A stretch of 64,000 bases of DNA, taken from contig NW_027362764.1 in NCBI RefSeq assembly GCF_046119375.1, positions 49,910,001 to 49,974,000 of the forward strand, given 5' to 3'. The translations under genes were made by a program, and so were the position numbers. Every line of letters begins with the position of its first letter. Position 1 is the first letter of the stretch. Under the pieces are notes generated by a model that worked only from the letters and a program-made list of their open reading frames with translations, ran no database searches and was not told where the DNA came from. Below, one piece after another: positions 19,951 through 55,699 of this stretch. Source of the DNA: Phyllobates terribilis (taxonomy: Eukaryota).

Positions 19951-20356
19951 TTCGTGCCCGCAACCACCGGGTACTGCGTGCCTGAAAAAGACTGTTGTAA
20001 ACTTACCAGTGGCGAAGTTTCCCGCCGTCCGGAGTCTTTTCCCGCCATCCGGAGCCGATTCCCGCCATTAGACGCCATCTTGGACCGTTTCCCGCCGTCT
20101 TCTGCCGTCTTCCCGCCATCGGACGCCATCTTCAGGACGCCGCGCGGGAAGAAGAGGGGCGTGGACGTCAAAACCGCGCGAGATCCGAAGCTCCGCCCCA
20201 CGCACCGACGCTGCGCAAGGTCCTGGAAGGGAGAGAGAGCGACGCTGACGTCATCGGAGTGCGACGCCAGGTCCTCGTCCAGAGCAGCAGCGGAGCCGCA
20301 GCCTACAGAAGAGGATCGTCGGAAGGTAGGCCACGCTTCACTAGGGGGGGAGGAAG

Positions 20357-21349: not shown

Positions 21350-21363
21350 GATCACCAGGCCCT
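21304..21363 (+). promoter_or_regulatory. -1 ribosomal frameshift signal (slippery heptamer plus predicted pseudoknot)
   Basis: T TTA AAC at 21304-21310 in the gag frame; the pol frame (-1) opens at 21304; stem CCTGGGG/CCCCAGG, with loop AGGGCC complementary to downstream GGCCCT. Confidence 0.75.
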
Positions 21364-24300: not shown

Positions 24301-25473
24301 GTCCCGGTAAAGGGCTTGACAGCCCAAACAGCGGCCAGAGCCTTCCAGCAATATTTCTGCCGTCCACACGGGTATCCGGAACAGGTCCTGACAGACCAGG
24401 GTCCAGCGTTCGAGGCTGAAATCTTCCAGGAGTTCTGTAACCTCTATGGCTGTAAGAAGATTCGGACAACGCCTTACCACCCCCAAACCAACGGGATGTG
24501 TGAGAAGATGAACAATATAGTCATTGATCTCCTGAAGACGTTGCCCCTGGAGGAACGCAGCCTGTGGCCAGAAAAACTGCCGGACCTGGTAGACATGTAC
24601 AACAATATCCCGGTGAACGCTACAAACTGCACCCCGGCTTACCTGATGCGAGCTAGACCGGGTAAGCTGCCCGTAGACCTGGAGATGGGAGTCCTAATAC
24701 CTGAGGACACCTCCCCGGATGCGGACTGGGATACGGAAAGGCAACTGCAGTACAAGAAGGTACAGGAGAGTGTGGAGAAGAGCCTGGCCCAGGTGAGAGA
24801 GAAGCAAGAAAGACTCTTCAATCAACACGCCCCTGCTAGTCCCCTAGAACCTGGTGAGCAAGTCCTAAAGCGGAAGAGAAGGCTACATAAGTTGGACGAC
24901 CAGTGGGAAAGGGAACCCTACACCGTACTGCAGTCTGACCATGACAACCCAAAGGTGTGCGTAATCACCAAGGATGGAGGAGAAACCACTAGTGTCGTCT
25001 CCAGAGACCACCTCAAAAGGTGCCCCGAGCAACTCCGTAGTGCAGAAGAGGATCAGAGTGACCTTGAACCCGCAGAGGACAAGGAAGAAATGATCAGCAC
25101 CATTCTCGGAGAGTTCCCTCAGTCCTGGACTCGCATAAATGATGCCATAGTGGTACCTGTCCTGCATTTCCTGCAACCGGCACAGCAACAACCAACATCA
25201 GAGCCGGAAGGTGAAGAGGAGCAAGCGGTTCCAGAGGCAGAAGAGCCTGTACCAGCAGCCCAGGAGAGTCAACCCTCTGCTGACAGTGAGCCTGCCATGC
25301 CTGCGGTAAGCCAAAGAACCCGCAGACAGCTGCCTGCCCTACCTGTACACCCAGCTGGTAGCTGTACCCCTAACGCTAGTGGGGAGAGCCAGGTTGGTCC
25401 ACCACCAGACAGTGGGTTAAGGAGGTCAACCAGGAGCACAAAGGGACAGATACCCGCTCGCTGGAGAATATAG
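21304..25473 (+). pseudogene. pol: Pol (protease-RT-RNase H-integrase) with a single in-frame TGA at 21628-21630
   Basis: LLDTGSQ protease, YLDD RT, LHTDAS RNase H, H..GHFG..C..C zinc finger and LDH/LTDQG/E catalytic integrase; otherwise open for ~1390 codons. Confidence 0.93.
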
Positions 25474-31243: not shown

Positions 31244-34200
31244 ACTGCACCAGCAGAATAGTGAGTGCAGCTCCGGGGTATAATACAGGATGTAACTCAG
31301 GATCAGTACAGGATCAGTAATGTAATGTATGTACACAGTGACTGCACCAGCAGAATAGTGAGTGCAGCTCTGGAGTATAATACATGATGTAACACAGGAT
31401 AAGTAATGTAATATATGTACACAGTGACTGCACCAGCAGAATAGTGAGTGCAGCTCTGGAGTATAATACAGGATGTAGCTCTGGATCAGTACAGGATCAG
31501 TAATGTAATGTATGTATACAATGACTGCACCAGCAGAATAGTGAGTGCAGCTCTGGAGTATAATACAGGATGTAACTCAGGATCAGTACAGGATAAGTAA
31601 TGTAATCTATGTACACAATGACTGCACCAGCAGAATAGTGAGTGCAGCTCTGGGGTATAATACAGGATGTAACTCAGGATCAGTACAGGATAAGTAATGT
31701 AATGTATGTACACAGTGACTGCACCAGCAGAATAGTGAGTGCAGCTCTGGAGTATAATACAGGATGTAACTCAGGATCAGTAATGTAATGTATGTACACA
31801 GTGACTTCACCAGCAGAATAGTGAGTGCAGCTCTGGAGAAAATACAGGATGTAACTCAAGATAAGTAATGAGGGGATTTGCTGTGATATAATTGTTTAGA
31901 ATATAATGCTGCTGGGTGCATTATCTATTCTTGCAGTCCTTACTTTTGGGAACTGAAGACGAGTAATTTGATCTGACCCATTGATGAATCTCTCTGATAT
32001 ATGTATAAGGAAATAAATCATATTATAGATATTGAGTTTAGTATTAGATATATTATTAGATTATTATTGTATTTAAATAAAAACAAAAGTGGCCACATCC
32101 CATCACGTTTGGAAAGTTGCTATAAACACTTCATTACCAATATTCTCAGTGTGGTAATTTTAAAGGGCACAAAGTTTCCAAACAGTTTTAGGAATGCCTC
32201 TCATCTTGCCGATGTCATTGACCCTCCGGACTGTCCTCGAGATGTTTTTGAGCCTCATTATAATTCACTGTTTGGTAACAAAGTAATAAAAAATAGTTAC
32301 AACAGCATCAACCGCGGCACGCAGCGTTCACGGGGCTGCACTAAAAATTATATTTCCTAACAGGTGTTATACTCATTTTCAATTCAGGTTCACGGGACCC
32401 CCAGTCATTTTTTTCTGTCCCTCAGCAGGATTTCATTACCTGCCTGTGATCAAACCACGGAGACAGCGCTGCTCTCTATAAAATCAATTTATCCTTTATG
32501 TGCGTCTTCCAGCCAGACAGAAGCTTAATACCGAAGTCCTGAAAATTACAGCCTTCCACCCGTCTGCCTGGTAAAAAAAGACCCAGATTTCTTCTCTTTA
32601 TGAAACGGCAGGCGAGGAGCACTCTGAAATCACAATTTGATAAAATTACAGGATTGTCGGCTGCAGACAAGGTTGTGATTATCCTCTATGACTTGGGTGG
32701 CAGATCTGCTTTTTTATACACTGTAATGTTACAATTTTCTATTTTCTGGCTGCAGATAAAAAAATATTGAATATTGGGACGATGGGTCCACCACTTATGT
32801 TCTTCATATACCTTGCTGCTCTGGGATGGTAATTTTTTGGCATTTCACTATGGTTTAATAAGCACCACTCCCCTTTAAACATTTGTATATCCTTGTGTTA
32901 TATGTAAGTTCAGAGCAACTTCAGTTACAATAATATAGGAATTATTATGCCTAATACAGTGTAACACCCAAAGGCACTTAACGTTGATTTATTAAAATTA
33001 CTATAATGTCACCCCCTATTAATAAAAATGTATAATTCTACCCCCTTTGGATGGGAGTACAGGTACTACAATGCTACTTCCTATGTAATGGACTGTAACT
33101 ACTATATTACTGCCCCTATGTACAAGAATAAAACTACTATAATACTGCCTCCTATGTACAAGAATATAACTATTATAATACTGTCCGTGTTCAAGAATAT
33201 AACTACTATAATACTGCCCCTATGAACAAGAATATAACTACTATAATACTGCCCCCTATGTACAAGAATATAACTACTATAATACGGCTCCTATGTACCA
33301 GAATATAACTACTATAATACTGCCCCTATGTACAAGAATATAACTACTATAATACTGCCCCTATATACAAGAATATAACTACTATAATACTGCCCCCTAT
33401 GTACAAGAATATAACTACTATAATACTGCCTCCTATGTACAAGAATATAACTACTATAATACTGCCCCTATGTACAAGAATTTAACTACTATAATACTGC
33501 CCCTATGTACAAGAATATAACTACTATAATACTGTCCGTGTTCAAGAATATAACTACTATAATACTGCCCCTATGTACAAGAATATAACTACTATAATAC
33601 TGCTTCTATGTACAAGAATATAACTGCTATAATACTGCTCCTATGTACAAGAATATAACTACTATAATACTGCCCCTATGTACAAGAATTTAACTACTAT
33701 AATACTGCTTCTATGTACGAGAATATAACTACTATAATACTGCCCCCTATGTACAAGAATATAACTACTATAATACTGCCCCTATGTACAAGAATATAAC
33801 TACTATAATACTGCCTTTATGTACAAGAATACAACTACTATAATACTGCTCCTATGTACAGGAATATAACTACTATAATACTGCCCCCTATGTACAAGAA
33901 TATAACTACTATAATACTGCTCCTATGTACAAGAATATAACTGCTATAATACTACTCCTATGTACAAGAATATAACTGCTGTAATACTGTTCTTTTGTAC
34001 AAGAATATAACTGCTATAATACTGCTCTTTTGTACAAGAATATAACTGCTATAATACTGCTACTATGTACAAAAATATAACTACTATAATACTGCCCCCT
34101 ATGTACAGGAATATAACTACTATAATACTGCTCCTATGTACAAGAATATAACTACTATAATTCTGCCCCCTATGTGCAAGAGTATAATTACTATAATACT

Positions 34201-36264
34201 GCTCCCGATGTACAAGAATATAACTACTATAATACTGCTCCTATGTATAAGAATATAACTACTATAACACTGCCCCTTATGTACAACAATATAACTACTA
34301 TAATACTGCCTCTATGTACAAGAATATAACTACTATAATACTGCTCCCATGTACAAGAATATAACTACTATAATACTGTCCCTATGTACAAGAATATAAC
34401 TACTATAATACTGCTCCTGTGAAGAAGAATATAACTACTATAAAACTGCCCCTATGTACAAGAATATAACTACTATAATACTGCTCCCATGTACAAGAAT
34501 ATAATTACTATAATACTGCCCCTATGTACAAGAATATAACTACTATAATACTGCTCCTATGTACAAGAATATAACTATTATAATACTGCCCCTATGTACA
34601 AGAATATAGCTACTATAATACTGTCCATGTGTTCAAGAATATAACTACTATAATACTGCCCCTATGTACAAGAATATAAATACAATAATACTGCTCCTAT
34701 GTAGAAGAATATAACTACTATAATACTGCTCTTATGTAGAAGAATATAACTACTATAATACTGTCCCTATGTACAAGAATATAACTACTATAATACTGCT
34801 CCTCTGTACAAGAATATAACTACTATAATACTGCTCCTCTGTACAAGAATATAACTACTATAATACTGCCCCTATGTACAAGAATATAACTACTATAATA
34901 CTGCCACTATGTACAAGAATATAACTACTATAATACTGCCACTATGTACAAGAACATAACTACTATAATACTGCTCCCTATGTACAAGAATGTAACTACT
35001 ATAATACTGCCCCTATGTACAAGAATATAACTACTATAATACTGCCCCTATGTACAAGAATATAACTACTATAATACTGCCACTATGTACAAGAATATAA
35101 CTACTATAATACTACTCCCTATGTACAAGAATATAACTACTATAATACTGCCTCTATGTACAAGAATATAACTACTATAATACTGCTCCTATGTACAAGA
35201 ATATAACTACTATAATACTGCTCCTATGTACAAGAATATAACTAGTATAATACTGCTCCTATGTACAAGAATATAACTACTATAATACTGCTCCTATGTA
35301 GAAGAATATAACTATTATAATACTTCTCCTATGTAGAAGAATATAACTACTATAATACTGCCCCCTATTTACAGGAATATAACTACTATATTACTGCTCC
35401 TATGTACAAGAATATAACTACTATAATACTGCCCCTATGTATAAGAATATAACTACTATAGTACTGCTCCTATGTAGAAGAATATAACTACTATAATACT
35501 GCCCCTATGTATAAGAATATAACTACTATAATACTGCTCCTATGTACAAGAATATAGCTACTATAATACTGCCCCTATGTATAAGAATATAACTACTATA
35601 ATACTGCTCCTGTGTACAAGAATATAACTACTATAATACTGCCCCTATGTATAAGAATATAACTACTATAATACTGCTCCTATATGCAAGAATATAACTA
35701 TCATAATACTGCCCCTATGTATAAGAATATAACTACTATAATACTGCTCCTATGTACAAGAATATAACTACTATAATACTGCCCCTATGTATAAGAATAT
35801 AACTACTATAATACTGTCCCTATGTACAAGAATATAACTACTATAATACTGCTCCTATGTACAAGAATATAACTACTATAATACTGCCCCCTATTTACAG
35901 GAATATAGCTACTATATTACTGCTCCTATGTACAAGAATATAACTACTATAATACTGCCCCTATGTACAAGAATATAACTACTATAGTACTGCTCCTATG
36001 TAGAAGAATATAACTACTATAATACTGCCCCCTATTTACAGGAATATAACTACTATATTACTGCTCCTATGTACAAGAATATAACTACTATAATACTGCC
36101 CCTATGTATAAGAATATAACTACTATAGTACTGCTCCTATGTACAAGAATATAACTACTATAATACTGCTCCTCTGTACAAGAATATAACTGCTATAATA
36201 CTGCTCCTCTGTACAAGAATATAACTACTATAATACTGCCCCCTATGTACAAGAATATAGCTAC

Positions 36265-38097
36265 TGTAATGCACACGCCCGGACTGACTGGCGTGTGCGT
36301 GTTTATGTAGTGATTCCACTGTGCCATGAACCGGAGAGTTCCTGGAGGGGCGTAACTAAGTATCTGCCCGATCCGACCAAGGTCGCACGACGGCATACGA
36401 CGCCAGTGCACCAGGGAGGAACCGAGCAGAGGAACCAGGGTCTACTCCAGGTCAGACTCCGGACACGGCTGTTGACCCACACCGGGGAATACTGGAACAG
36501 GCAGACTAGAGCGCAGGCTGGGTAGGGTCCAGTACAGACTGGGAGACAAATTCGAAACCGCAGACGCGGCGGACAGAGCTGAGCAAAGCGAAAACCGCAG
36601 ACGCGGCGGACAGAGCTGAGCAAAGCGAAAACCGCAGACGCGGCGGACAGAGCTGAGCAAAGCGAAAACCGCAGACGCGGCGGACAGAGCTGAGCAAAGC
36701 GAAAACCGCAGACGCGGCGGACAGAGCTGAGCAAAGCGAAAACCGCAGACGCGGCGGACAGAGCTGAGCAAAGCGAAAACCGCAGACGCGGCGGACAGAG
36801 CTGAGCAAAGCGAAAACCGCAGACGCGGCGGACAGAGCTGAGCAAAGCGAAAACCGCAGACGCGGCGGACAGAGCTGAGCAAAGCGAAAACCGCAGACGC
36901 GGCGGACAGAGCTGAGCAAAGCGAAAACCGCAGACGCGGCGGACAGAGCTGAGCAAAGCGAAAACCGCAGACGCGGCGGACAGAGCTGAGCAAAGCGAAA
37001 ACCGCAGACACGGCGGACAGAGCTGAGCAAAGCGAAAACCGCAGACGCGGCGGACAGAGCTGAGGAAAGCGAGAACCGCAGACGCGGCGGACAGAGCTGA
37101 GCAAAGCGAAAACCGCAGACGCGGCGGACAGAGCTGAGCAAAGCGAAAACCGCAGACGCGGTGGGAACAGGGCTCTGTTCGCACGGAACAGACTAGAAGG
37201 GAAAGGCAGAACCAGATACCCACAGGGTACTTGCAGAGAAGTAGCGAGTGGACCACAAACTCACAAACGGAAGTACAGTGACAACGAGCAGTAGTTAGGT
37301 ACGAGTTCAGACTCTGCAGAAAAAGGAAAGGAACGGACATAGAGAAAAAACAGGTAAAAGATAGGAGAGAGTTCAGACTGGAACTGAGTGTACGGAGGAG
37401 ACCGACACTGCAGCGGGATACAGGAGCGGGTCTGGGAATACGGCCCCCAGAGAGGCGGGACGAACAGGCAAGGAGCGTGTTCAGACTGGCCTGGAAATAC
37501 AGCCTCCAGGATAGGCAGACAAGAGAACACAGACAGGACTCAGTTCAGACACGGGAACTGATACCGCAAGGCAGGAGACATAGACAGGACTCAGTTCAGA
37601 TACGGGAACTGATACCGCAAGGCAGGAGACAAAGACAGGACTCAGTACAGACACGGGAACTGATACCGCAAGGCAGGAGACATAGACAGGACTCAGCTCA
37701 GACAGGGGAACTGATACCGCAAGGCAGGAGACATAGACAGGACTCAGTTCAGACACGGGAACTGATACCGCAAGGCAGGAGACAAAGAACGGGACCTGGC
37801 ACCTTCAGAGTGCAAGCACACACTGAATGAAACACTATGCTCAGGCATGGGTTAATTGGGGCAGCTGGTTTAAATACCAGGTGACAGACAGCAATAGGCT
37901 GAGGACGCACAAGGGGTGTGCCTGCAGCAGGTACAAAAAGCAGGAAGTGATCGGGCGCCGCCCTTAAGCAGCAGACACAGAAGCAAACAGACAGCATGGA
38001 GGGAAGCCAGAGAGACACCCTGGACTGGAGATCAAGTGCGCGCTCTTGCACAGTGGGAAATGGACCACTATGCAAGGACGCCGCCAGGTATGTTACA
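36265..38097 (-). repeat. 3' LTR (1833 bp) containing a 37-bp tandem array (~36556-37160) and a 51-bp array (~37530-37785)
   Basis: Direct repeat of 40515-42384; unit AAAACCGCAGACGCGGCGGACAGAGCTGAGCAAAGCG. Confidence 0.95.
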
Positions 38098-40370
38098 GTA
38101 CCCCCCCCCCCCTTACGCCCCCTCTTCTTCAAGCCTGCCAGAATGTTCCGCAGGGAATTCGAGGGCCAATCCTTTACTTCAAGGAGATCACTTCCACTGT
38201 CCACTGGAGAAACTGGTCTCATCTGGGTAGCTAGGATGCTACCTCCTATCCAGCCATCCTCAGCAACAGACGAAACAGGTGGAGTACCAGGAACAGCACA
38301 CAGGGAAGTCTCTCTCCACTTATTATCAGGTAGCACCCCAGAGGGTTCAGGAGACAACTGGAAGTCCTCCGCCGGGTTGGAGGAGTGCAGAGACTCGGGG
38401 GTAACCTCTGCTTCGGGGTACATCTTGTCAAACTCACAGGATGAAATGGGCGAGGTATCAGGTACAAGGTGTAGAAAAGTCCCTGTTACCTTGTTATCTG
38501 GTGGTACCCAGGAGGATTCAGAAAACAACTGGGGGTCCTCCGCCGGGTCGGAATAGTGCAGAGACTCGGGGGTAACCTCTGCTTCGGAGTACACTAGGTC
38601 GGACTCGCTGGATGAAGCGGGCGAGGTATCAGGTACCGAATATAGAAGAGTACCTGTCCATTCGTTATCAGGTAGCACCCCGAAGGGTTCAGGAGACAAC
38701 TGGAGGTCTTCCGCCTGGTCGGAGGGGTGTAGAGACTCGGGGATAACCTCTGCTTCGAGGTACATCTTGTCAAATTCACAGGAAGAAATAGACGGGTTAT
38801 CAGGTACAGGGTGAGAAAAAGTCACTGTCTCTTTGTTATCTGGTGGTACCCCGGAGGAGTCAGGAAACAACTGGAGGTCCTCTGCCGGGTCAGAAGACTG
38901 CAGAGGCTCGGGGAAAACATCTGCTTCAGAGTACACTAGGTCGGACTCACTGGACGAAGCAGGCAAGGTATCGGGTACCGAGTATTGGAAAGTCTCTGTC
39001 CATTCACCACCAGGTGGCACCCCGAAGGGTTCTGGAGACAACTGGAGGTCCTCCGCCTGGTCAGAGGGGTGTAGAGACTCATGGGTAACCTCTGCTTCAG
39101 AGTACACTAGGTCGGACTCACTGGACGAAGCAAGCAAGGTATCAGATCCAGGATATAGGAAAGTCTCTGTCCATTCACCACCAGGTGGCACCCCGAAGGG
39201 TTCTAGAGACAACTGGAGGTCCTCCGCCTGGTCGGAGGGGTGTAGAGACTCGGGAGTAACCTCTGCTTCGGAGTACACTAGGTGGGAGTCACTGGACGAA
39301 GCGAGCAAGGTATCAGGTACAGAGTATAGGAGAGTCTCTGTCCTTTCGCTACCAGGTAGCACCCCGAAGGGCTCAGGAGACAACTGGAAGTCCTCCGCCA
39401 GGTCAGAGGGGTGAAGAGACTCATGGGTAACCTCTGCTTCAGAGTACACTAGGTTGGACTCACTGGATGAAGCAGCCGAGATATCAGGTACTGAGTATAG
39501 GAAAGCCTCTGTCCATTCGCTACCAGGTAGCACCCCGAAGGGTTCAGGAGACAACTGCAGATCCTCCGCCTGATCGGAGGGGTGTAGAGACTCAGGGGTA
39601 ACCTCTGCTTCGGAGAACACTAGGTTGGACTCACTGGACGAAGCGGGCGAGGTATCAGGTGCAGGGTATAGGGAAGTCTCTCTCCAATTGTCCTCAAGTG
39701 GTATCCCGGGGGATTCAAGAGGCTACAGGGGGTCCTCCAGTGTGAATTCTGGGTGGGCAGCAGTCTCTTCGGGCAGGAGAACTGGTGCACTACCCACGCA
39801 CATTACCCGTTGGGGCTTCTCCGGGATACAGGGAGATGAAGCTTCAGTAGGGACTTCAAGGTTGGGGTCAGGAGGTCTCAGGGAGGACAGACCCTGGCGT
39901 GACGGCTTGCCTCTACGTCTAGCACATCTGGACTGCCTCTTGAGGTTGGGAGAAGCATTCCGGAGAGTGTAGTCACCCTGTGAGGATTCTGGGTGGGCAG
40001 TAGTCTCATTGGGCTGGAGGACTATTGCGCTACCCACACACATTACCCATCGGGGCTGCTCCGGGATACTGGGAAGTGAAGCTTCAGCAGGAGCCTCCGG
40101 GTTAGGATCATCGAAGACCATTAGAAAGACCACCAGGAAGGCCATTATGTCCAGGACAATAGGATCCTGTGTTTCCCATAGGGGGTTGATCCATTCCAAG
40201 GCATCACCCGCTAGGTTAGACATAATGAATCCCACCTTAACTCGATCGGTGGGAAAACAAAGAGGGTAGAACTTGAAGTGTAGCATGCATTGCTCCACAA
40301 ATGCACGACTCTGTCTTGGATCCCCATAGTAACGTGGCGGATCCGCACGAACGAGAGCTGATAGATCCAT
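37749..40370 (-). pseudogene. Gag N-terminal domain fused in frame to ~8 acidic 57-aa repeats; one internal TAG at 39723-39725; reads into the 3' LTR
   Basis: PPRYYGDPRQSRAFVEQC..F..YP..FPTDRVKVGFIMSNLAGDALEWINPLWE...FDDP (RTL1/PEG10/LDOC1-like gag). ORFs 39723-40370 and 37749-39620 are in the same frame. Confidence 0.8.
38101..38114 (-). promoter_or_regulatory. Polypurine tract
   Basis: Minus strand AAGGGGGGGGGGGG-TAC then TGTAAC of the 3' LTR. Confidence 0.8.
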
Positions 40371-40502
40371 CTGGACGGGTGCATAATTCGCCTGGAACTC
40401 AGCCAGAGGAAAAAAAAAAAAAAAATTTATTTATTTTTAATGCACGTAGTCGCTGGAAAAAGTCTCAGAGAGCGAAGGCCGTGGGGCTCAACGGGAACCA
40501 TG

Positions 40503-40512
40503 GCCTGAGCAT
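40503..40512 (-). promoter_or_regulatory. Putative self-priming PBS (ATGCTCAGGC on minus)
   Basis: Lies 2 nt inside the 5' LTR edge; complementary to GCCTGAGCAT (42124-42133, minus), which sits ~30 nt downstream of TATTTAAA (42156-42163). Confidence 0.65.
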
Positions 40513-40514
40513 GC

Positions 40515-42384
40515 TGTAATGCACACGCCTGGACTGACTGGCGTGTGCGTGTTTATGTAGTGATTCCACTGTGCCATGAACCGGAGAGTGCCTGGAGGGG
40601 CGTAACTAAGTATCTGCCCGATCCGACCAAGGTCGCACGACGGCATACGACGCCAGTGCACCAGGGAGGAACCGAGCAGAGGAACCAGGGTCTACTCCAG
40701 GTCAGACTCCGGACACGGCTGTTGACCCACACCGGGGAATACTGGAACAGGCAGACTAGAGCGCAGGCTGGGTAGGGTCCAGTACAGACTGGGAGACAAA
40801 TTCGAAACCGCAGACGCGGTGGACAGGGCCGAGCAAAGCGAAAACCGCAGACGCGGCGGACAGAGCTGAGCAAAGCGAAAACCGCAGACGTGGCGGACAG
40901 AGCTGAGCAAAGCGAAAACCGCAGACGCGGCGGACAGAGCTGAGCAAAGCGAAAACCGCAGACGCGGCGGACAGAGCTGAGCAAAGCGAAAACCGCAGAC
41001 GCGGCGGACAGAGCTGAGCAAAGCGAAAACCGCAGACGCGGCGGACAGAGCTGAGCAAAGCGAAAACCGCAGACGCGGCGGACAGAGCTGAGCAAAGCGA
41101 AAACCGCAGACGCGGCGGACAGAGCTGAGCAAAGCGAAAACCGCAGACGCGGCGGACAGAGCTGAGCAAAGCGAAAACCGCAGACGCGGCGGACAGAGCT
41201 GAGCAAAGCGAAAACCGCAGACGCGGCGGACAGAGCTGAGCAAAGCGAAAACCGCAGACGCGGCGGACAGAGCTGAGCAAAGCGAAAACCGCAGACGCGG
41301 CGGACAGAGCTGAGCAAAGCGAAAACCGCAGACGCGGCGGACAGAGCTGAGCAAAGCGAGAACCGCAGACGCGGCGGACAGAGCTGAGCAAAGCGAAAAC
41401 CGCAGACGCGGCGGACAGAGCTGAGCAAAGCGAAAACCACAGACGCGGTGGGAACAGGGCTCTGTTCACACGGAACAGACTAGAAGGGAAAGGCAGAACC
41501 AGATACCCACAGGGTACTTGCAAAGAAGTAGCGAGTGGACCACAAACTCACAAACGGAAGTACAGTGACAATGAGCAGGAGTTAGGTACGAGTTCAGACT
41601 CTGCAGAAAAAGGAAAGGAACGGACATAGAGAAAAAACAGGTAAAAGATAGGAGAGAGTTCAGACTGGAACTGAGTGTACGGAGGAGACCGATACTGCAG
41701 CGGGATACAGGAGCGGGTCTGGGAATACGGCCCCCAGAGAGGCGGGACGAACAGGCAAGGAGCGTGTTCAGACTGACCTGGAAATACAGCCTCCAGGATA
41801 GGCAGACAAGAGAACACAGACAGGACTCAGTTCAGACACGGGAACTGATACCGCAAGGCAGGAGACATAGACAGGACTCAGTTCAGACACGGGAACTGAT
41901 ACTGCAAGGCAGGAGACAAAGACAGGACTCAGTTCAGACACGGGAACTGATACCGCAAGGCAGGAGACATAGACAGGACTCAGCTCAGACACGGGAACTG
42001 ATGCCGTAAGGCAGGAGACATAGACAGGACTCAGTTCAGACACGGGAACTGATACCGCAAGGCAGGAGACAAAGAACGGGACCTGGCACCTTCAGAGTGC
42101 AAGCACACACTGAATGAAACACTATGCTCAGGCATGGGTTAATTGGGGCAGCTGGTTTAAATACCAGGTGACAGACAGCAATAGGCTGAGGACGCACAAG
42201 GGGTGTGCCTGCAGCAGGTACAAAAAGCAGGAAGTGATCGGGCGCCGCCCTTAAGCAGCAGACACAGAAGCAAACAGACAGCATGGAGGGAAGCCAGAGA
42301 GACACCCTGGACTGGAGATCAAGTGCGTGCTCTTGCACAGTGGGAGATGGACCACTATGCAAGGACGCCGCCAGGTATGTTACA
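40515..42384 (-). repeat. 5' LTR (1870 bp)
   Basis: 37 bp (one repeat unit) longer than the 3' LTR; otherwise few substitutions. Confidence 0.95.
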
Positions 42385-45300
42385 GCTACTATAATACTGC
42401 CCCTATGTACAAGAACATAACTACTATAATACTGCTCCCTATGTACAAGAATGTAACTACTATAATACTGCTCCTATGTACAAGAATATAACTACTATAA
42501 TACTGCTCCTCTGTACAAGAATATAACTACTATAATACTGCCCCCTATGTACAAGAATATAACTACTATAATACTGCCCCTATGTACAAGAACATAACTA
42601 CTATAATACTGCTCCCTATGTACAAGAATATTACTACTATAATACTGCCCTCTATGTACAAGAATATAACTACTATAATACTGCCCCCTATGTACAAGAA
42701 TATAACTACTATAATACTGCCCCTATGTACAAGAATATAACTACTATAACACTGCCCCCTATATACAAGAATATAACTACTATAATACTGCCCCTATGTA
42801 CAAGAATATAACTACTATAATACTGCTCCTATGTACAAGAATATAACTACTATAACACTGCCCCCTATATACAAGAATATAACTACTATAATACTGCTCC
42901 TATGTACAAGAATATAACTACTATAATACTGCTCCTATGTACAAGAATATAACTACTATAATACTGCTCCTATGTACAAGAATATAACTACTATAATACT
43001 GCCCTCTATGTACAAGAATATAACTACTATAATACTGCCCCCTATGTACAAGAATATAACTACTATAATACTGCCCCTATGTACAAGAATATAACTACTA
43101 TAACACTGCCCCCTATATACAAGAATATAACTACTATAATACTGCCCCTATGTACAAGAATATAACTACTATAATACTGCCCCCTATGTACAAGAATATA
43201 ACTACTATAATACTGCCCCTATGTACAAGAATATAACTACTATAACACTGCCCCCTATATACAAGAATATAACTACTATAATACTGCCCCTATGTACAAG
43301 AATATAACTACTATAACACTGCCCCCTATATACAAGACTATAACTACTATAATACTGCCCCTATGTACAAGAATATAACTACTATAATACTGCCCCTATG
43401 TATAAGAATATAACTACTATAGTACTGCTCCTATGTACAAGAATATAACTACTATAATACTGCCCCTATGTATAAGAATATAACTACTATAATACTGCTC
43501 CTATGTACAAGAATATAACTACTATAATACTGCCCCTATGTATAAGAATATAACTACTATAATACTGCTCCTGTGTACAAGAATATAACTACTATAATAC
43601 TGCCCCTATGTATAAGAATATAACTACTATAATACTGCTCCTACGTACAAGAATATAACTATTATAATACTGCCCCTATGTATAAGAATATAACTACTAT
43701 AATACTGCTCCTATGTACAAGAATATAACTACTATAATACTGCCCCTATGTATAAGAATATAACTACTATAATACTGTCCCTATGTACAAGAATATAACT
43801 ACTATAATACTGCTCCTATGTAGAAGAATATAACTACTATAATACTGCCCCCTATTTACAGGAATATAGCTACTATATTACTGCTCCTATGTACAAGAAT
43901 ATAACTACTATAATACTGCCAATATGTACAAGAATATAACTACTATAGTACTGCTCCTATGTAGAAGAATATAACTACTATAATACTGCTCCTATGTAGA
44001 AGAATATAACCACTATAATACTGCCCCCTATTTACAGGAATATAACTACTATATTACTGCTCCTATGTACAAGAATATAACTACTATAATACTACTCCCT
44101 ATGTACAAGAATATAACTACTATAATACTGTCTCTATGTACAAGAATATAACTACTATAATACTGCTCCTATGTACAAGAATATAACTACTATAATACTG
44201 CCCCCTATGTACAAGAATATAACCACTATAATACTGCCCCCTATTTACAGGAATATAACTACTATATTACTGCTCCTATGTACAAGAATATAACTACTAT
44301 AATACTGCCCCTATGTATAAGAATATAACTACTATAGTACTGCTCCTATGTACAAGAATATAACTACTATAATACTGCTCCTCTGTACAAGAATATAACT
44401 ACTATAATACTGCTCCTCTGTACAAGAATATAACTACTATAATACTGCCCCCTGTGTACAAGAATATAACTACTATAATACTGCCCCCTGTGTACAAGAA
44501 TATAGCTACTATAATACTGCCCCTATGTACAAGAACATAACTGCTATAATACTGCTCCCTATGTACATGAATGTAACTACTATAATACTGCTCCTATGTA
44601 CAAGAATATAACTACTATAATACTGCTCCTCTGTACAAGAATATAACTACTATAATACTGCCCCCTATGTACAAGAATATAACTACTATAATACTGCCCC
44701 TATGTACAAGAATATAACTACTATAATACTGCCCCTATGTACAAGAACATAACTACTATAATACTGCTCCCTATGTACAAGAATGTAACATCTATAATAC
44801 TGTCCCTATGTACAAGAATATAACTACTATAATACTGCCCCTATGTACAAGAATATAACTACTATAATACTGCCACTATGTACAAGAATATAACTACTAT
44901 AATACTACACCCTATGTACAAGAATATAACTACTATAATACTGTCTCTATGTACAAGAATATAACTACTATAATACTGCTCCTATGTACAAGAATATAAC
45001 TACTATAATACTGCCCCCTATGTACAAGAATATAACTACTATAATACTGCCCCTATGTACAAGAATATAACTACTATAACACTGCCCCCTATATACAAGA
45101 ATATAACTACTATAATACTGCCCCTATGTACAAGAATATAACTACTATAATACTGCCCCTATGTATAAGAATATAACTACTATAGTACTGCTCCTATGTA
45201 CAAGAATATAACTACTATAATACTGCCTCTATGTATAAGAATATAACTACTATAATACTGCTCCTATGTACAAGAATATATCTACTATAATACTGCCCCT

Positions 45301-48300
45301 ATGTATAAGAATATAACTACTATAATACTGCCCCTATGTATAAGAATATAACTACTATAATACTGTCCCTATGTACAAGAATATAACTACTATAATTCTG
45401 CTCCTATGTAGAAGAATATAACTACTATAATACTGCCCCCTATTTACAGGAATATAGCTACTATATTACTGCTCCTATGTACAAGAAAATAACTACTATA
45501 ATACTGCCCCTATGTACAAGAATATAACTACTATAGTACTGCTCCTATGTAGAAGAATATAACTACTATAATACTGCTCCTATGTAGAAGAATATAACTA
45601 CTATAATACTGCCCCCTATTTACAGGAATATAACTACTATATTACTGCTCCTATGTACAAGAATATAACTACTATAATACTGCCCCTATGTATAAGAATA
45701 TAACTACTATAGTACTGCTCCTATGTACAAGAATATAACTACTATAATACTGCTCCTCTGTACAAGAATATAACTACTATAATACTGCTCCTCTGTACAA
45801 GAATATAACTACTATAATACTGCCCCCTATGTACAAGAATATAGCTACTATAATACTGCCCCTATGTACAAGAACATAACTACTATAATACTGCTCCCTA
45901 TGTACAAGAATATAACTACTATAATACTGCTCCTCTGTACAAGAATATAACTACTATAATACTGCCCCCTATGTACAAGAATATAACTACTATAATACTG
46001 CCCCTATGTACAAGAATATAACTACTATAATACTGCTCCTCTGTACAAGAATATAACTACTATAATACTGCCCCCTATGTACAAGAATATAACTACTATA
46101 ATACTGCCCCTATGTACAAGAATATAACTACTATAATACTGCCCCTATGTACAAGAACATAACTACTATAATACTGCTCCCTATGTACAAGAATATAACT
46201 ACTATAATACTGCTCCTCTGTACAAGAATATAACTACTATAATACTGCCCCCTATGTACAAGAATATAAATACTATAATACTGCCCCTATGTACAAGAAT
46301 ATAACTACTATAATACTGCCCCTATGTACAAGAACATAACTACTATAATACTGCTCCCTATGTACAAGTATGTAACTTCTATAATACTGCCCCTATGTAC
46401 AAGAATATAACTACTATAATACTGCTCCTATGTACAAGAATATAACTACTATAATACTGCTCCCATGTAGAAGAATATAACTACTATATTACTGCTCCTA
46501 TGTACAAGAATATAACTACTATAATACTGCCCTCTATGTACAAGAATATAACTACTATAATACTGCCCCCTATGTACAAGAATATAACTACTATAACACT
46601 GCCCCTATGTACAAGAATATAACTACTATAACACTGCCCCCTATATACAAGAATATAACTACTATAATACTGCCCCTATGTACAAGAATATAACTACTAT
46701 AATACTGCCCCCTATGTACAAGAATATAACTACTATAATACTGCTCCTATGTAGAAGAATATAACTACTATAATACTGCCCCCTATTTACAGGAATATAG
46801 CTACTATATTACTGCTCCTATGTACAAGAATATAACTACTATAATACTGCCCCTATGTACAAAAATATAACTACTATAGTACTGCTCCTATGTAGAAGAA
46901 TATAACTACTATAATACTGCTCCTATGTAGAAGAATATAACTACTATAATACTGCCCCTTATTTACAGGAATATAACTACTATATTACTGCTCCTATGTA
47001 CAAGAATATAACTACTATAATACTGCCCTCTATGTACAAGAATATAACTACTATATTACTGCCCCTATGTATAAGAATATAACTACTATAGTACTGCTCC
47101 TATGTACAAGAATATAACTACTATAATACTGCTCCTCTGTACAAGAATATAACTACTATAATACTGCTCCTCTGTACAAGAATATAACTACTATAATACT
47201 GCCCCCTATGTACAAGAATATAGCTACTATAATACTGCCCCTATGTAGAAGAACATAACTACTATAATACTGCTTCCTATGTACAAGAATGTAACTACTA
47301 TAATACTGCTCCTATGTACAAGAATATAACTACTATAATACTGCTCCTCTGTACAAGAATATAACTACTATAATACTGCCCCCTATGTACAAGAATATAA
47401 CTACTATAATACTGCCCCTATGTACAAGAATATAACTACTATAATACTGCCCCTATGTACAAGAACATAACTACTATAATACTGCTCCCTATGTACAAGA
47501 ATGTAACTTCTATAATACTGCCCCTATGTACAAGAATATAACTACTATAATACTGCCCCTATGTACAAGAATATAACTACTATAATACTGCCACTATGTA
47601 CAAGAATATAACTACTATAATACTACTCCCTATGTACAAGAATATAACTACTATAATACTGCTCCTATGTACAAGAATATAACTACTATAATACTGCTCC
47701 TATGTAGAAGAATATAACTACTATAATACTGCCCCTTATTTACAAGAATATAACTACTATATTACTGCTCCTATGTACAAGAATATAACTACTATAATAC
47801 TGCCCTCTATGTACAAGAATATAACTACTATAATACTGCCCCTATGTATAAGAATATAACTACTATAGTACTGCTCCTATGTACAAGAATATAACTACTA
47901 TAATACTGCTCCTCTGTACAAGAATATAACTACTATAATACTGCTCCTCTGTACAAGAATATAACTACTATAATACTGCCCCCTATGTACAAGAATATAG
48001 CTACTATAATACTGCCCCTATGTAGAAGAACATAACTACTATAATACTGCTCCCTATGTACAAGAATGTAACTACTATAATACTGCTCCTATGTACAAGA
48101 ATATAACTACTATAATACTGCTCCTCTGTACAAGAATATAACTACTATAATACTGCCCCCTATGTACAAGAATATAACTACTATAATACTGCCCCTATGT
48201 ACAAGAATATAACTACTATAATACTGCCCCTATGTACAAGAACATAACTACTATAATACTGCTCCCTATGTACAAGAATGTAACTTCTATAATACTGCCC

Positions 48301-51300
48301 CTATGTACAAGATTATAACTACTATAATACTGCCCCTATGTACAAGAATATAACTACTATAATACTGCCACTATGTACAAGAATATAACTACTATAATAC
48401 TACTCCCTATGTACAAGAATATAACTACTATAATACTGCTCCTATGTACAAGAATATAACTACTATAATACTGCCTTGTATGTACAAGAATATATCTACT
48501 CTAATACTGCTCCTATGTGCAAGAATATAACTACTATAATACTGTCTCTATGTACCAGAATATAACTACTATAATACTGCTCCTATGTACAAGAATATAA
48601 CTACTATAATACTGCCCTCTATGTACAAGAATATAACTACTATAATACTGCTCCTATGTACAAGAACATAACTACTATAATACTGCCCCTATGTACAAGA
48701 ATATAACTACTATAATACTGCCCCTATGTACAAGAATATAACTACTATAATACTGCCCCTATGTACAAGAATATAACTACTATAATACTGCTCCTATGTA
48801 CAAGAATATAACTACTATAATACTGCCTCTATGTACAAGAACATAACTACTATAATACTGCCCCTATGTACAAGAACATAACTACTATAATACTGCCCCC
48901 TATGTACAAGAATATAACTACTATAATACTGCCCCTATGTACAAGAATATAACTACTATAACACTGCCCCCTATATACAAGAATATAACTACTATAACAC
49001 TGCCCCCTATATACAAGAATATAACTACCATAATACTGCCCCTATGTACAAGAATATAACTACTATAATACTGCCCCTATGTACAGGAACATAACTACTA
49101 TAATACTGCTCCCTATGTACAAGTATGTAACTTCTATAATACTGCCCCTATGTACAAGAATATAACTACTATAATACTGCTCCTATGTACAAGAATATAA
49201 CTACTATAATACTGCTCCCATGTAGAAGAATATAACTACTATATTACTGCTCCTATGTACAAGAATATAACTACTATAATACTGCCCTCTATGTACAAGA
49301 ATATAACTACTATAATACTGCCCCCTATGTACAAGAATATAACTACTATAATACTGCCCCTATGTACAAGAATATAACTACTATAACACTGCCCCCTATA
49401 TACAAGAATATAATTACTATAATACTGCCCCTATGTACAAGAATATAACTACTATAATACTGCCCCCTATGTACAAGAATATAACTACTATAATACTGCT
49501 CCTATGTAGAAGAATATAACTACTATAATACTGCCCCCTATTTACAGGAATATAGCTACTATATTACTGCTCCTATGTACAAGAATATAACTACTATAAT
49601 ACTGCCCCTATGTACAAGAATATAACTACTATAGTACTGCTCCTATGTAGAAGAATATAACTACTATAATACTGCTCCTATGTAGAAGAATATAACTACT
49701 ATAATACTGCCCCTTATTTACAGGAATATAACTACTATATTACTGCTCCTATGTACAAGAAAATAACTACTATAATACTGCCCTCTATGTACAAGAATAT
49801 AACTACTATAATACTGCCCCTATGTATAAGAATATAACTACTATAGTACTGCTCCTATGTACAAGAATATAACTACTATAATACTGCTCCTCTGTACAAG
49901 AATATAACTACTATAATACTGCTCCTCTGTACAAGAATATAACTACTATAATACTGCCCCCTATGTACAAGAATATAGCTACTATAATACTGCCCCTATG
50001 TAGAAGAACATAACTACTATAATACTGCTCCCTATGTACAAGAATGTAACTACTATAATACTGCTCCTATGTACAAGAATATAACTACTATAATACTGCT
50101 CCTCTGTACAAGAATATAACTACTATAATACTGCCCCCTATGTACAAGAATATAACTACTATAATACTGCCCCTATGTACAAGAATATAACTACTATAAT
50201 ACTGCCCCTATGTACAAGAACATAACTACTATAATACCGCTCCCTATGTACAAGAATGTAACTTCTATAATACTGCCCCTATGTACAAGAATATAACTAC
50301 TATAATACTGCCCCTATGTACAAGAATATAACTACTATAATACTGCCACTATGTACAAGAATATAACTACTATAATACTACTCCCTATGTACAAGAATAT
50401 AACTACTATAATACTGCTCCTATGTACAAGAATATAACTACTATAATACTGCTCCTATGTAGAAGAATATAACTACTATAATACTGCCCCTTGTTTACAA
50501 GAATATAACTACTATATTACTGCTCCTATGTACAAGAATATAACTACTATAATACTGCCCTCTATGTACAAGAATATAACTACTATAATACTGCCCCTAT
50601 GTATAAGAATATAACTACTATAGTACTGCTCCTATGTACAAGAATATAACTACTATAATACTGCTCCTCTGTACAAGAATATAACTACTATAATACTGCT
50701 CCTCTGTAGAAGAATATAACTACTATAATACTGCCCCCTATGTACAAGAATATAGCTACTATAATACTGCCCCTATGTAGAAGAACATAACTACTATAAT
50801 ACTGCTCCCTATGTACAAGAATGTAACTACTATAATACTGCTCCTATGTACAAGAATATAACTACTATAATACTGCTCCTCTGTACAAGAATATAACTAC
50901 TATAATACTGCCCCCTATGTACAAGAATATAACTACTATAATACTGCCCCTATGTACAAGAATATAACTACTATAATACTGTCCCTATGTACAAGAACAT
51001 AACTACTATAATACTGCTCCCTATGTACAAGAATGTAACTTCTATAATACTGCCCCTATGTACAAGAATATAACTACTATAATACTGCCCCTATGTACAA
51101 GAATATAACTACTATAATACTGCCACTATGTACAAGAATATAACTACTATAATACTACTCCCTATGTACAAGAATATAACTACTATAATACTGCTCCTAT
51201 GTACAAGAATATAACTACTATAATACTGCCTTGTATGTACAAGAATATATCTACTCTAATACTGCTCCTATGTGCAAGAATATAACTACTATAATACTGT

Positions 51301-54300
51301 CTCTATGTACCAGAATATAACTACTATAATACTGCTCCTATGTACAAGAATATAACTACTATAATACTGCCCTCTATGTACAAGAATATAACTACTATAA
51401 TACTGCTCCTATGTACAAGAACATAACTACTATAATACTGCCCCTATGTACAAGAATATAACTACTATAATACTGCCCCTATGTACAAGAATATAACTAC
51501 TATAATACTGCCCCTATGTACAAGAATATAACTACTATAATACTGCTCCTATGTACAAGAATATAACTACTATAATACTGCCTCTATGTACAAGAACATA
51601 ACTACTATAATACTGCCCCTATGTACAAGAACATAACTACTATAATACTGCCCCCTATGTACAAGAATATAACTACTATAATACTGCTCCCTATGTACAA
51701 GAATATAACTACTATAATACTACTCCCTATGTACAAGAATATAACTACTATAATACTGCTCCTATGTACAAGAATATAACTACTATAATACTGCCTTGTA
51801 TGTACTAGAATATATCTACTCTAATACTGCTCCTATGTGCAAGAATATAACTACTATAATACTGTCTCTATGTACCAGAATATAACTACTATAATACTGC
51901 TCCTATGTACAAGAATATAACTACTATAACACTGCCCCCTATATACAAGAATATAACTACTATAACACTGCCCCCTATATACAAGAATATAACTACTATA
52001 ATACTGCCCCTATGTACAAGAATATAACTACTATAATACTGCCCCTATGTACAGGAACATAACTACTATAATACTGCTCCCTATGTACAAGTATGTAACT
52101 TCTATAATACTGCCCCTATGTACAAGAATATAACTACTATAATACTGCTCCTATGTACAAGAATATAACTACTATAATACTGCTCCCATGTAGAAGAATA
52201 TAACTACTATATTACTGCTCCTATGTACAAGAATATAACTACTATAATACTGCCCTCTATGTACAAGAATATAACTACTATAATACTGCCCCCTATGTAC
52301 AAGAATATAACTACTATAATACTGCCCCTATGTACAAGAATATAACTACTATAACACTGCCCCCTATATACAAGAATATAACTACTATAATACTGCCCCT
52401 ATGTACAAGAATATAACTACTATAATACTGCCCCCTATGTACAAGAATATAACTACTATAATACTGCTCCTATGTAGAAGAATATAACTACTATAATACT
52501 GCCCCCTATTTACAGGAATATAGCTACTATATTACTGCTCCTATGTACAAGAATATAACTACTATAATACTGCCCCTATGAACAAGAATATAACTACTAT
52601 AGTACTGCTCCTATGTAGAAGAATATAACTACTATAATACTGCTCCTATGTAGAAGAATATAACTACTATAATACTGCCCCTTATTTACAGGAATATAAC
52701 TACTATATTACTGCTCCTATGTACAAGAATATAACTACTATAATACTGCCCTCTATGTACAAGAATATAACTACTATAATACTGCCCCTATGTATAAGAA
52801 TATAACTACTATAGTACTGCTCCTATGTACAAGAATATAACTACTATAATACTGCTCCTCTGTACAAGAATATAACTACTATAATACTGCTCCTCTGTAC
52901 AAGAATATATCTACTATAATACTGCCCCCTATGTACAAGAATATAGCTACTATAATACTGCCCCTATGTAGAAGAACATAACTACTATAATACTGCTCCC
53001 TATGTACAAGAATGTAACTACTATAATACTGCTCCTATGTACAAGAATATAACTACTATAATACTGCTCCTCTGTACAAGAATATAACTACTATAATACT
53101 GCCCCCTATGTACAAGAATATAACTACTATAATACTGCCCCTATGTACAAGAATATAACTACTATAATACTGCCCCTATGTACAAGAACATAACTACTAT
53201 AATACTGCTCCCTATGTACAAGAATGTAACTTCTATAATACTGCCCCTATGTACAAGAATATAACTACTATAATACTGCCCCTATGTACAAGAATATAAC
53301 TACTATAATACTGCCACTATGTACAAGAATATAACTACTATAATACTACTCCCTATGTACAAGAATATAACTACTATAATACTGCTCCTATGTACAAGAA
53401 TATAACTACTATAATACTGCTCCTATGTAGAAGAATATAACTACTATAATACTGCCCCTTATTTACAAGAATATAACTACTATATTACTGCTCCTATGTA
53501 CAAGAATATAACTACTATAATACTGCCCTCTATGTACAAGAATATAACTACTATAATACTGCCCCTATGTATAAGAATATAACTACTATAGTACTGCTCC
53601 TATGTACAAGAATATAACTACTATAATACTGCTCCTCTGTACAAGAATATAACTACTATAATACTGCTCCTCTGTAGAAGAATATAACTACTATAATACT
53701 GCCCCCTATGTACAAGAATATAGCTACTATAATACTGCCCCTATGTAGAAGAACATAACTACTATAATACTGCTCCCTATGTACAAGAATGTAACTACTA
53801 TAATACTGCTCCTATGTACAAGAATATAACTACTATAATACTGCTCCTCTGTACAAGAATATAACTACTATAATACTGCCCCCTATGTACAAGAATATAA
53901 CTACTATAATACTGCCCCTATGTACAAGAATATAACTACTATAATACTGCCCCTATGTACAAGAACATAACTACTATAATACTGCTCCCTATGTACAAGA
54001 ATGTAACTTCTATAATACTGCCCCTATGTACAAGAATATAACTACTATAATACTGCCCCTATGTACAAGAATATAACTACTATAATACTGCCACTATGTA
54101 CAAGAATATAACTACTATAATACTACTCCCTATGTACAAGAATATAACTACTATAATACTGCTCCTATGTACAAGAATATAACTACTATAATACTGCTCC
54201 CTATGTACAAGAATATAACTACTATAATACTGCCTTGTATGTACAAGAATATATCTACTCTAATACTGCTCCTATGTGCAAGAATATAACTACTATAATA

Positions 54301-55699
54301 CTGCTCCTATGTACAAGAATATAACTACTATAATACTGCCCTCTATGTACAAGAATATAACTACTATAATACTGCTCCTATGTACAAGAATATAACTACT
54401 ATAATACTGTCCCTATGTACAAGAATATAACTACTATAATACTGCTCCTATGTACAAGAACATAACTACTATAATACTGCCCCTATGTACAAGAATATAA
54501 CTACTATAATACTGCCCCTATGTACAAGAATATAACTACTATAATACTGCCCCTATGTACAAGAATATAACTACTATAATACTGCTCCTATGTACAAGAA
54601 TATAACTACTATAATACTGCCTCTATGTACAAGAACATAACTACTATAATACTGCCCCTATGTACAAGAACATAACTACTATAATACTGCCCCCTATGTA
54701 CAAGAATATAACTACTATAATACTGCTCCCTATGTACAAGAATATAACTACTATAATACTGCCCCTATGTACAAGAACATAACTACTATAATACTGCCCC
54801 CTATGTACAAGAATATAACTACTATAATACTGCTCCCTATGTACAAGAATATAACTACTATAATACTGCCCCTATATACAAGAATATAACTACTATAACA
54901 CCGCCCCCTATATACAAAAATATAACTACTATGTGTGGCCAGAGTGAAGAATATATATGTAACATACAAATTTGTTTTACAAGGTCATTTTTTGGTGATG
55001 TAATCCCTTTATCTGTGCTTTCATCTTCCCTCATTGTTGTTTCACACTTGTTGCCAAAATTACAGCTTTCGCTTTAATATCGATATATTCCTACACCGGC
55101 GTTTCTATTATATGTTCGGTGTGACTGTTGAGTGTTACGTTCTTCCCATGAGTGAAACAAACATTTCTGCTTTATGCAGTTAAGAGCGGACCTTCACTCC
55201 AGTTTTCAGGGGTTAGGAGAAAAAATACAATATAGCAGCAAGGATCGGGTCCCTAATGTCCTTGAGATATAATAAACTGAGCTATATTGTATTCAACCTG
55301 GGTGAGGAGGGGTTAAATGTTCCAGGTTTTCAATATTTTACTATAGTGGTAATGCTGCGGGGGGGCTATAATTTACTTGGCCCCCTGTAAAGTGGTGTGA
55401 ACCTTGCATTGGAAGGTCTAGGTAAGCCTGAATGTGTATATCACCAGTAATGGCTGTCAGGGGAGTTGTGCTGCCGATACATAGAAAAGCGGTAATTGTG
55501 TTCTGCGCAGTGAATGTATTAAGGTGTCACATTAGTTGGGGGATGGGGGATTTTGCCTTAGGTGATTTATATATTAAAAATATGTATTGGTATAATGAGA
55601 AGATCGTTCTTTCTGCAATAAATATGGTCTAGCTGCATTTATACAGATTTATAAATCCCCGTTTCAACCTTATCCAGTTTTTTCCCTCTGACGCACATA

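Follow-up and report, generated by a model that had tools for sequence, protein, structure and literature searches.

A pol-less sushi-type retrotransposon of the frog Phyllobates terribilis and the retention of its long, Gag-Pol-derived reading frame

The element and its family

The window analyzed here, a 64,000-nt stretch of the Phyllobates terribilis genome (contig NW_027362764.1), contains on its minus strand a non-autonomous, recently mobile long terminal repeat (LTR) retrotransposon of the sushi type that lacks pol. Its two LTRs differ at 20 of 1833 sites and by one 37-bp indel (98.9% identity), a 5-bp target duplication and the usual cis signals are in place, and a single frame of 873 codons with one TAG runs into the 3′ LTR (Table 1), much of which a first-pass annotation made from the letters alone had described. 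That annotation took the frame for a Gag capsid fused to a functional array of repeats that had replaced pol. Our results point to a different account, in which the frame is an eroded Gag-Pol, the N-terminal lobe (N-lobe) of the capsid is its only part conserved as protein, and the retention of a frame without stops is very probably what selection has favored.

Table 1. Features of the element, given as positions in the window (strand "." where none applies)
Feature	Position	Strand	Remarks
Target duplication, 5 bp	36260..36264	.	twin at 42385-42389
3′ LTR	36265..38097	-	1833 bp
Long frame	37749..40370	-	873 codons, read 40370 to 37749; one stop; last 116 codons within 3′ LTR
Polypurine tract (PPT)	38101..38130	-	89% identity over 46 nt with autonomous relative L319
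Eroded integrase chromodomain	38131..38288	-	relic
Acidic Ser/Pro-rich array, 171-bp (57-aa) unit	38302..39686	-	about 8 units, two subtypes; origin of unit start in RNase H C-terminus likely
TAG stop, codon 216	39723..39725	-	private to the window copy
Eroded start of capsid C-lobe	39732..40110	-	duplication at 240-bp spacing; predicted disordered
Capsid N-lobe (DUF4939, five helices)	40104..40370	-	about aa 11-89; dN/dS 0.25-0.4 between families
Variable T-run and downstream AG	40390..40426	-	splice-acceptor-like, before second ATG; 36/40 copies
Upstream open reading frame (ORF), 24 codons	40427..40501	-	opened by ancestral gag start codon behind the PBS
Primer-binding site (PBS)	40503..40512	-	2 nt behind LTR; not of tRNA type
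5′ LTR	40515..42384	-	1870 bp, TG...CA; U3 of ~250 bp, then long R/U5 with 51-bp and 37-bp arrays
Self-primer (predicted)	42124..42133	-	10 nt at R start; pairs with the PBS of the same element
TATA-like box	42154..42165	-	~30 nt upstream of predicted RNA start

The earlier assignment to the sushi group is borne out by the DUF4939 domain, the TG...CA LTRs, the chromodomain relic and the PBS. A duplex of at least 10 nt between PBS and self-primer can form in 35 of 39 sister copies, and it is also present in the related family B and in the autonomous copy L258, both introduced below; the arrangement predicts self-priming of the kind described for the Tf1/sushi group (PMC6317226). The LTR has no AATAAA and carries instead a CATAAA ~40 nt from its 3′ end. 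This is the region where the poly(A) signal of sushi LTRs is located (PMC3601003), and R would therefore be very long. In family A, to which the window element belongs, AATAAA-like hexamers also lie right behind the 5′ LTR and ahead of the T-run (window 40426-40441, minus strand), where early polyadenylation is possible. The 3′ att motif fits the reported CNTNACA (PMC3601003), and the 5′ att motif is off at one position.

The insertion lies within a 35-bp minisatellite of ~445 copies (window 33096-36270 and 42386-54932), which it interrupts; among 40 family A copies checked, this location is unique to the window element.

A search of the 10.6-Gb genome with the 5′ internal region of family A returned 3511 first-look candidates, which is not a copy number, and the 40 that were scored are 97-100% identical. 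Our sister sample consists of the 39 best copies, and is thus biased to close ones, together with 20 from a 3′-anchored search, of which 18 could be parsed. Of the 30 copies in which both ends are present, 27 are flanked by matching 5-bp target duplications, and the two LTRs of a copy differ by a median of 0.9% (range 0.2-1.6%, n = 30). Family A thus transposed recently without a pol of its own. Two of the three misses are due to one three-LTR tandem (L046 and L059), in which two family A elements have the middle LTR in common. One subfamily (L298-L312) has the same U3 and a different R/U5 right after the self-primer, which suggests recombination at the RNA 5′ end; it also carries in-frame deletions of 57 and 9 nt.

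Content and origin of the long frame

The stop at codon 216 is indeed a private change, as had been supposed, since a sense codon stands at this position in each of the 39 sisters; none of them has the CAG from which it was thought to derive. Between ATG and PPT the frame is unbroken in 23 of the 39 sisters, and in 9 of the 18 copies of the 3′-anchored set it is open to the PPT. Its 3′ end varies with the G-run of the PPT: it reaches the LTR in 22 sisters, ending at LTR position +2 in 10 of them and between +3 and +367 in the remainder. A C-terminus inside the LTR is not a conserved terminus.

A Pfam scan of the long frame detects DUF4939 alone (aa 11-82, E 8e-7) and no pol domain; protease, reverse transcriptase (RT), RNase H and integrase have all been lost. 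An AlphaFold model of the first 169 aa of one sister (98% identical to the window copy), built on a three-sequence alignment, shows five helices at aa 18-86, with a predicted local distance difference test (pLDDT) score of 82-91 across aa 21-80 and low confidence past ~aa 100. The best structural matches of the modeled lobe are the capsid N-lobes of dArc1, Ty3 and Arc, with Z scores of 7.0-7.7, middling for a helical domain (dArc1, Z 7.7, root-mean-square deviation 2.1, 68 aligned residues; Ty3 capsid N-terminal domain, CA-NTD, Z 7.4, 3.0, 73 aligned). With a single lobe in the model and among the fold matches, the "capsid" of the first-pass annotation comes down to one lobe; the N-lobe is the only recognizable part. 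The whole Gag ORF is not retained, because the C-lobe is eroded and predicted to be disordered and the zinc knuckle is deleted in family A. Other searches added little: phmmer of the N-terminus against PDB gave no match, and word-indexed protein searches, which are weak evidence, returned nothing for the N-terminal 215 aa among longer proteins or for a sister's 757-aa frame. A profile match to PEG10 7LGA was not used, as it covers profile positions 143-232, probably the C-lobe of the homologues.

Behind the lobe lies the array, with 8.1 copies of a unit that is always exactly 171 bp long (81% matches). The ~8 tandem repeats in constant phase are therefore as first noted, and their extent is 1.39 kb and not ~1.5 kb. 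Family A copies hold 2 to 11 full units. The encoded peptide is acidic, with 20% D+E against 1.6% K+R.

The origin of the frame became apparent from more distant relatives. Family B, an older sister family reached via a diverged LTR and sampled as 28 fetched copies (25 complete), is ~78% identical to family A in DNA and 93-96% identical among its own copies. Its 604-aa frame is collinear with the autonomous copy L258 over Gag (33%, E 2e-29), the protease/RT tether (30%, E 6e-14) and the chromodomain (43%). Whereas L258 has gag and pol in separate frames, family B reads through both in one. Family B has lost the zinc-knuckle spacing and the DSG motif of the protease, and in family A zinc knuckle, protease and RT tether are deleted in frame. 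The chromodomain relic scores 138-152 at the DNA level against at most 88 in 100 shuffles. The long frame is therefore an eroded Gag-Pol, and pol was not exchanged for foreign repeats: the tail is a chromodomain relic, and the unit itself is likely an outgrowth of the RNase H end in the parent clade's pol. This end is preferred because the single unit of a third family, D, starts with an ungapped match to it (33-47 of 78 nt, compared with 24-32 of 78 nt in other sushi families). The family B unit scores 56-89 against the RNase H-integrase linker of the clade (shuffles, 47 ± 6); a profile comparison was weak (probability 14%, E 0.002). Scans of the whole Pol yielded no significant site. RT motif A, the end of the integrase core and the GPF module were also weighed as sources, and the RNase H end came to be favored over them once family D was known.

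The autonomous clade of L258 is abundant, with at least 150 exact matches to a 65-aa query in a stretch of ~200 Mb on one contig. It self-primes, judging by its sequence, with a PBS near-identical to that of the element, and one of its subfamilies has a 103-nt LTR segment (77-83%) and the PPT in common with it. This clade is the likely parent and helper. Searches with DUF4939 and Chromo also turned up single-ORF sushi families; with an N-lobe identity of ~40% and another PPT, these were rejected as parents. A PF03732 search gave nothing related. The 150 best PF03732 matches and the 34 best PF24626 matches are all on small unplaced contigs, possibly foreign DNA that entered the assembly.

The same eroded frame occurs in two other frogs. 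A search of 1.84 billion representative sequences retrieved it from Dendrobates tinctorius (XP_073442088.1, 35% over 299 aa) and Ranitomeya imitator (CAJ0964197.1, 44%). With the D. tinctorius frame, family D was in turn recovered from the P. terribilis genome; it is 73% identical to B and 75% among its copies, has a single unit, and is older than B. Families A, B and D are ~22-27% apart in DNA.

Selection on the frame

Copies decay neutrally after insertion. In the head of the frame, compared across 35 family A copies (four duplicated loci and one gapped head removed), private changes comprise 74 nonsynonymous, 37 synonymous and 10 stop changes, and the common ones 17, 7 and 0. The repeat units behave likewise: in 322 units from 52 copies, with a change called shared when it is found in at least three copies, there is no stop among 154 shared changes compared with six among the 115 private ones (79 nonsynonymous, 29 synonymous; P 0.006), and the five other reading frames contain 4-13 shared stop states. 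Lineage-level changes number 453 and include no stop, where private rates predict 14-25, and no stop codon occurs in the fixed A-B or D-B differences (D-B over 363 codons). Indels follow the same pattern. All four A-B indels in the ORF are in frame, compared with 2 of 15 outside it, in LTR and leader sequence (P 0.004). Apart from a 1-bp deletion carried by two copies, every shared ORF indel within B has a length divisible by three, and private ones mostly shift the frame. The claim that frame retention is real and selected is thus upheld by the private stop, the open sisters and the lineage-level changes free of stops and frameshifts.

Constraint on the amino acids is a different matter. For the 87 N-lobe codons, the fixed A-B differences give a ratio of nonsynonymous to synonymous rates (dN/dS) of 0.33-0.39 (P 0.003-0.01). 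The 79 codons that follow have 0.59-0.66 and the 92 codons of the tail 0.55-0.63, neither of them significant. Pairs of real A and B copies (35 and 19) yield 0.37 for codons 1-89 and 0.90 for codons 90-139. For D-B, the values are 0.25-0.32 over 49 N-lobe codons and 0.87-1.00 over 314 others (17 D copies). Seven near-invariant capsid residues are retained in the lobe. By these comparisons, only the N-lobe is constrained as protein, and moderately so, with the rest, repeats included, drifting near neutrality (0.55-1.0). For the repeats, the ratio of nonsynonymous to synonymous changes does not differ between shared (1.7-2.7, depending on tie-breaking) and private changes (2.7; P 0.1-1.0), unit number ranges from 2 to 11, and D-B dN/dS over unit plus tail is 1.15-1.34. 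The repeat peptide does not appear to matter as a sequence, and the dN/dS near 1 found here is the value that the first-pass annotation had itself named as speaking against its claim. A role as capsid passenger, also proposed there, is conceivable for the N-lobe and not for the repeats.

Mechanism, alternatives and meaning

On balance, we lean toward a combined mechanism built on the simplest account, translation in cis: a helper would copy only RNA that ribosomes have read all the way to the 3′ LTR. The element RNA would be translated, and the nascent N-lobe would dock on the assembling capsid of the helper and so favor its own RNA, a cis preference like that reported for the mouse element IAP IΔ1. 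The rest of the frame, repeats included, would be filler of indifferent sequence whose role is to present no premature stop and hence to avoid RNA decay. The enzymes would be supplied by the helper, whose RT would use the 5′ end of the element itself to begin DNA synthesis and whose integrase would insert the product. Selection acts during transposition and not on inserted copies, purging stops and frameshifts across the frame, with amino acids mattering mainly in the N-lobe. A broader proposal, which we put forward tentatively as close to an even call, is that a "ghost" polyprotein has been kept through at least three waves, with the docking lobe conserved, ~600 codons eroding neutrally without stops, and a scrap of RNase H turned into a tunable array.

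Several observations weigh against this mechanism. In family A, only 4 of 39 copies have the ancestral start fused to the long frame, compared with 14 of 19 in B; the uncoupling in the other 35 is a lineage-level break. Translation in family A would therefore need reinitiation or splicing at the T-run/AG site, which may serve as a splice acceptor. In contigs from four plus four sequencing runs, the element is covered piecemeal and no joint is listed at this site, which speaks neither for nor against expression or splicing. The predicted 5′ leader is ~1.6 kb long with six further ATGs, and the natural stop still leaves a 3′ untranslated region (UTR) of up to ~1.8 kb, behind whose stop a CU-rich protective element was looked for and not found (CU-hexamers 0.05 vs 0.04, not enriched). 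Among the autonomous copies compared, the closest are only 46-54% identical in the N-lobe, and none is singled out as the exact helper. The contrast between N-lobe and rest is significant only when pooled (P 0.02; singly 0.07 and 0.44), and the D-B value for the lobe rests on 49 codons and partly on a high dS. Lastly, a CpG-type stop occurs in 3 of 25 B copies and another stop in 2, one unit stop is carried by two family A copies, and stops recur in up to 5 of 17 copies of D, where three of four small shared indels are also out of frame; these D cases are expected of old decayed copies and noisy alignment and may nevertheless be real. Family B fragments with a common stop looked like a counterexample and were rejected as one, having multiplied as passengers: out of 13 others compared with L364, 9 have a flank-containing block of ~6.6 kb in common with it, and 2 have 4.1-4.4 kb. 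This 5′-truncated fragment (L364-L375) sits inside a block of at least 6.6 kb at a dozen places, at 92-99% identity.

Of the alternatives, the one that fares best, though we regard it as unlikely, is that ribosome passage alone matters through RNA surveillance, the protein being irrelevant and the N-lobe conserved by chance or by an overlapping RNA packaging signal. Retroviral RNA is known to decay when gag contains a premature stop (PMC2925335), most of the frame has a dN/dS near 1 and no stops, and the N-lobe contrast is modest. A packaging signal should, however, be weighed against the synonymous sites of the lobe, which are unconstrained (synonymous differences per site, pS, 0.25-0.36, at least as high as elsewhere), while its replacement sites are constrained on two branches; the lobe also still folds in the model with its near-invariant capsid residues kept.

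We consider it quite improbable that the whole protein acts as a capsid passenger or decoy with the acidic array as a selected spacer or charge module. The rise in unit number from one in D to 2-3 in B and up to 12 in A would fit such a role, as would the charge bias, the invariance of some unit residues, and dN/dS values of ~0.5 for the more frequent of the two unit types in the window and 0.55-0.63 for the A-B tail (over all seven full units of the window, pairwise values are 0.53-0.77, depending on the assumed transition bias). Yet shared and private unit changes do not differ in their N/S, copies with anything from 2 to 11 units have all transposed, and the C-terminus is not fixed.

That no selection is involved, a young family having arisen from coding DNA with whole-unit slippage keeping the phase, is less probable still. 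The near-identity of family A copies (97-99%), the automatic preservation of frame by 171-bp gains and losses, and a dN/dS near 1 in most regions agree with it; the frame is nonetheless kept in three families and two other frog genera, and the missing stops and in-frame indels contradict it unless mutation after insertion strongly inflates private stops. That the element is turning into a domesticated host gene or a dominant-negative restrictor, along the lines of RTL/PEG10/LDOC1, is highly improbable and largely refuted at this locus: DUF4939 is the same domain family, and a lone capsid lobe can restrict elsewhere (Ty1 Drt2 is in the fold list), but the window copy is stopped at codon 216, private head changes are neutral, old D copies are full of stops and frameshifts, and the many dispersed copies keep their LTRs, with no fixed, immobile locus under purifying selection.

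The closest known system is mouse IAP IΔ1, likewise a successful non-autonomous element in which an internal deletion fuses gag and pol in one frame; its gag-pol fusion acts in cis and needs helper Gag and Pol (Saito et al. 2008, as reported in PMC6466679 and PMC7411935). IAP IΔ1 is a young deletion of an endogenous retrovirus (ERV) with intact sequence, whereas the frog element belongs to Ty3/gypsy, its frame has eroded to 30-50% identity with the parent clade, it carries a putatively pol-derived array, and its cis action would be read from the exclusion of stops and frameshifts. With the Tf1/sushi chromoviruses (V-clade) it shares TG...CA LTRs, the 5-bp duplication, a PBS predicted to self-prime, the DUF4939 lobe, the chromodomain (as a relic) and the 3′ att; it differs in lacking protease, RT, RNase H and integrase, in its 1.8-kb LTRs with tandem arrays and in its 5′ att. 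The TR-GAG elements of plants are also non-autonomous LTR elements with a gag-derived ORF and no enzymes (PMC13570524). Unlike these, the frog element has a vertebrate host and keeps half a capsid, C-lobe and zinc knuckle being absent; three quarters of its frame are eroded, pol-derived filler. The internal ORF of MaLR elements, reportedly described by Smit in 1993, is said to be a case of abundant vertebrate non-autonomous LTR elements with a long ORF of unknown use. MaLR derives from class III ERVs; the frog element still has its parent clade beside it, against which the erosion of each domain can be followed. Mammalian RTL/SIRH genes (PEG10, RTL1, LDOC1) have the same sushi gag domain family and are fixed host genes, unlike the frog element, which is mobile and multi-copy and whose copies decay neutrally.

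We found no description of this frog family in the full-text literature searched; Repbase, Dfam and subscription papers were outside its scope, and the family may be catalogued there. The available passages of an anuran transposable element survey make no mention of sushi elements (PMC12822217).

Elsewhere in the window, a second gypsy-type element (20345-25473, plus strand) with unbroken gag (334 aa) and pol (1280 aa) frames is unrelated to this finding. A 231-aa frame (4462-5157, plus strand) resembles by eye what we take to be a GIY-YIG endonuclease fragment of Penelope-like elements.

Long frames in pol-less elements are often taken as a sign of domestication or of a useful protein. Here, a parent clade, three successive derivative families and many copies allow "frame kept" to be separated from "protein kept", and the two can come apart. 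This calls for caution in annotation, as such frames have already been deposited as uncharacterized frog proteins. If cis translation is the cause, the IAP IΔ1 result would extend to Ty3/gypsy, and the role of RNA surveillance in retrotransposon success would become testable from sequence. If the ghost polyprotein is real, evolution would have left in this genome, and at genome scale, a natural record of a parasitic RNA selected simply for being translated.

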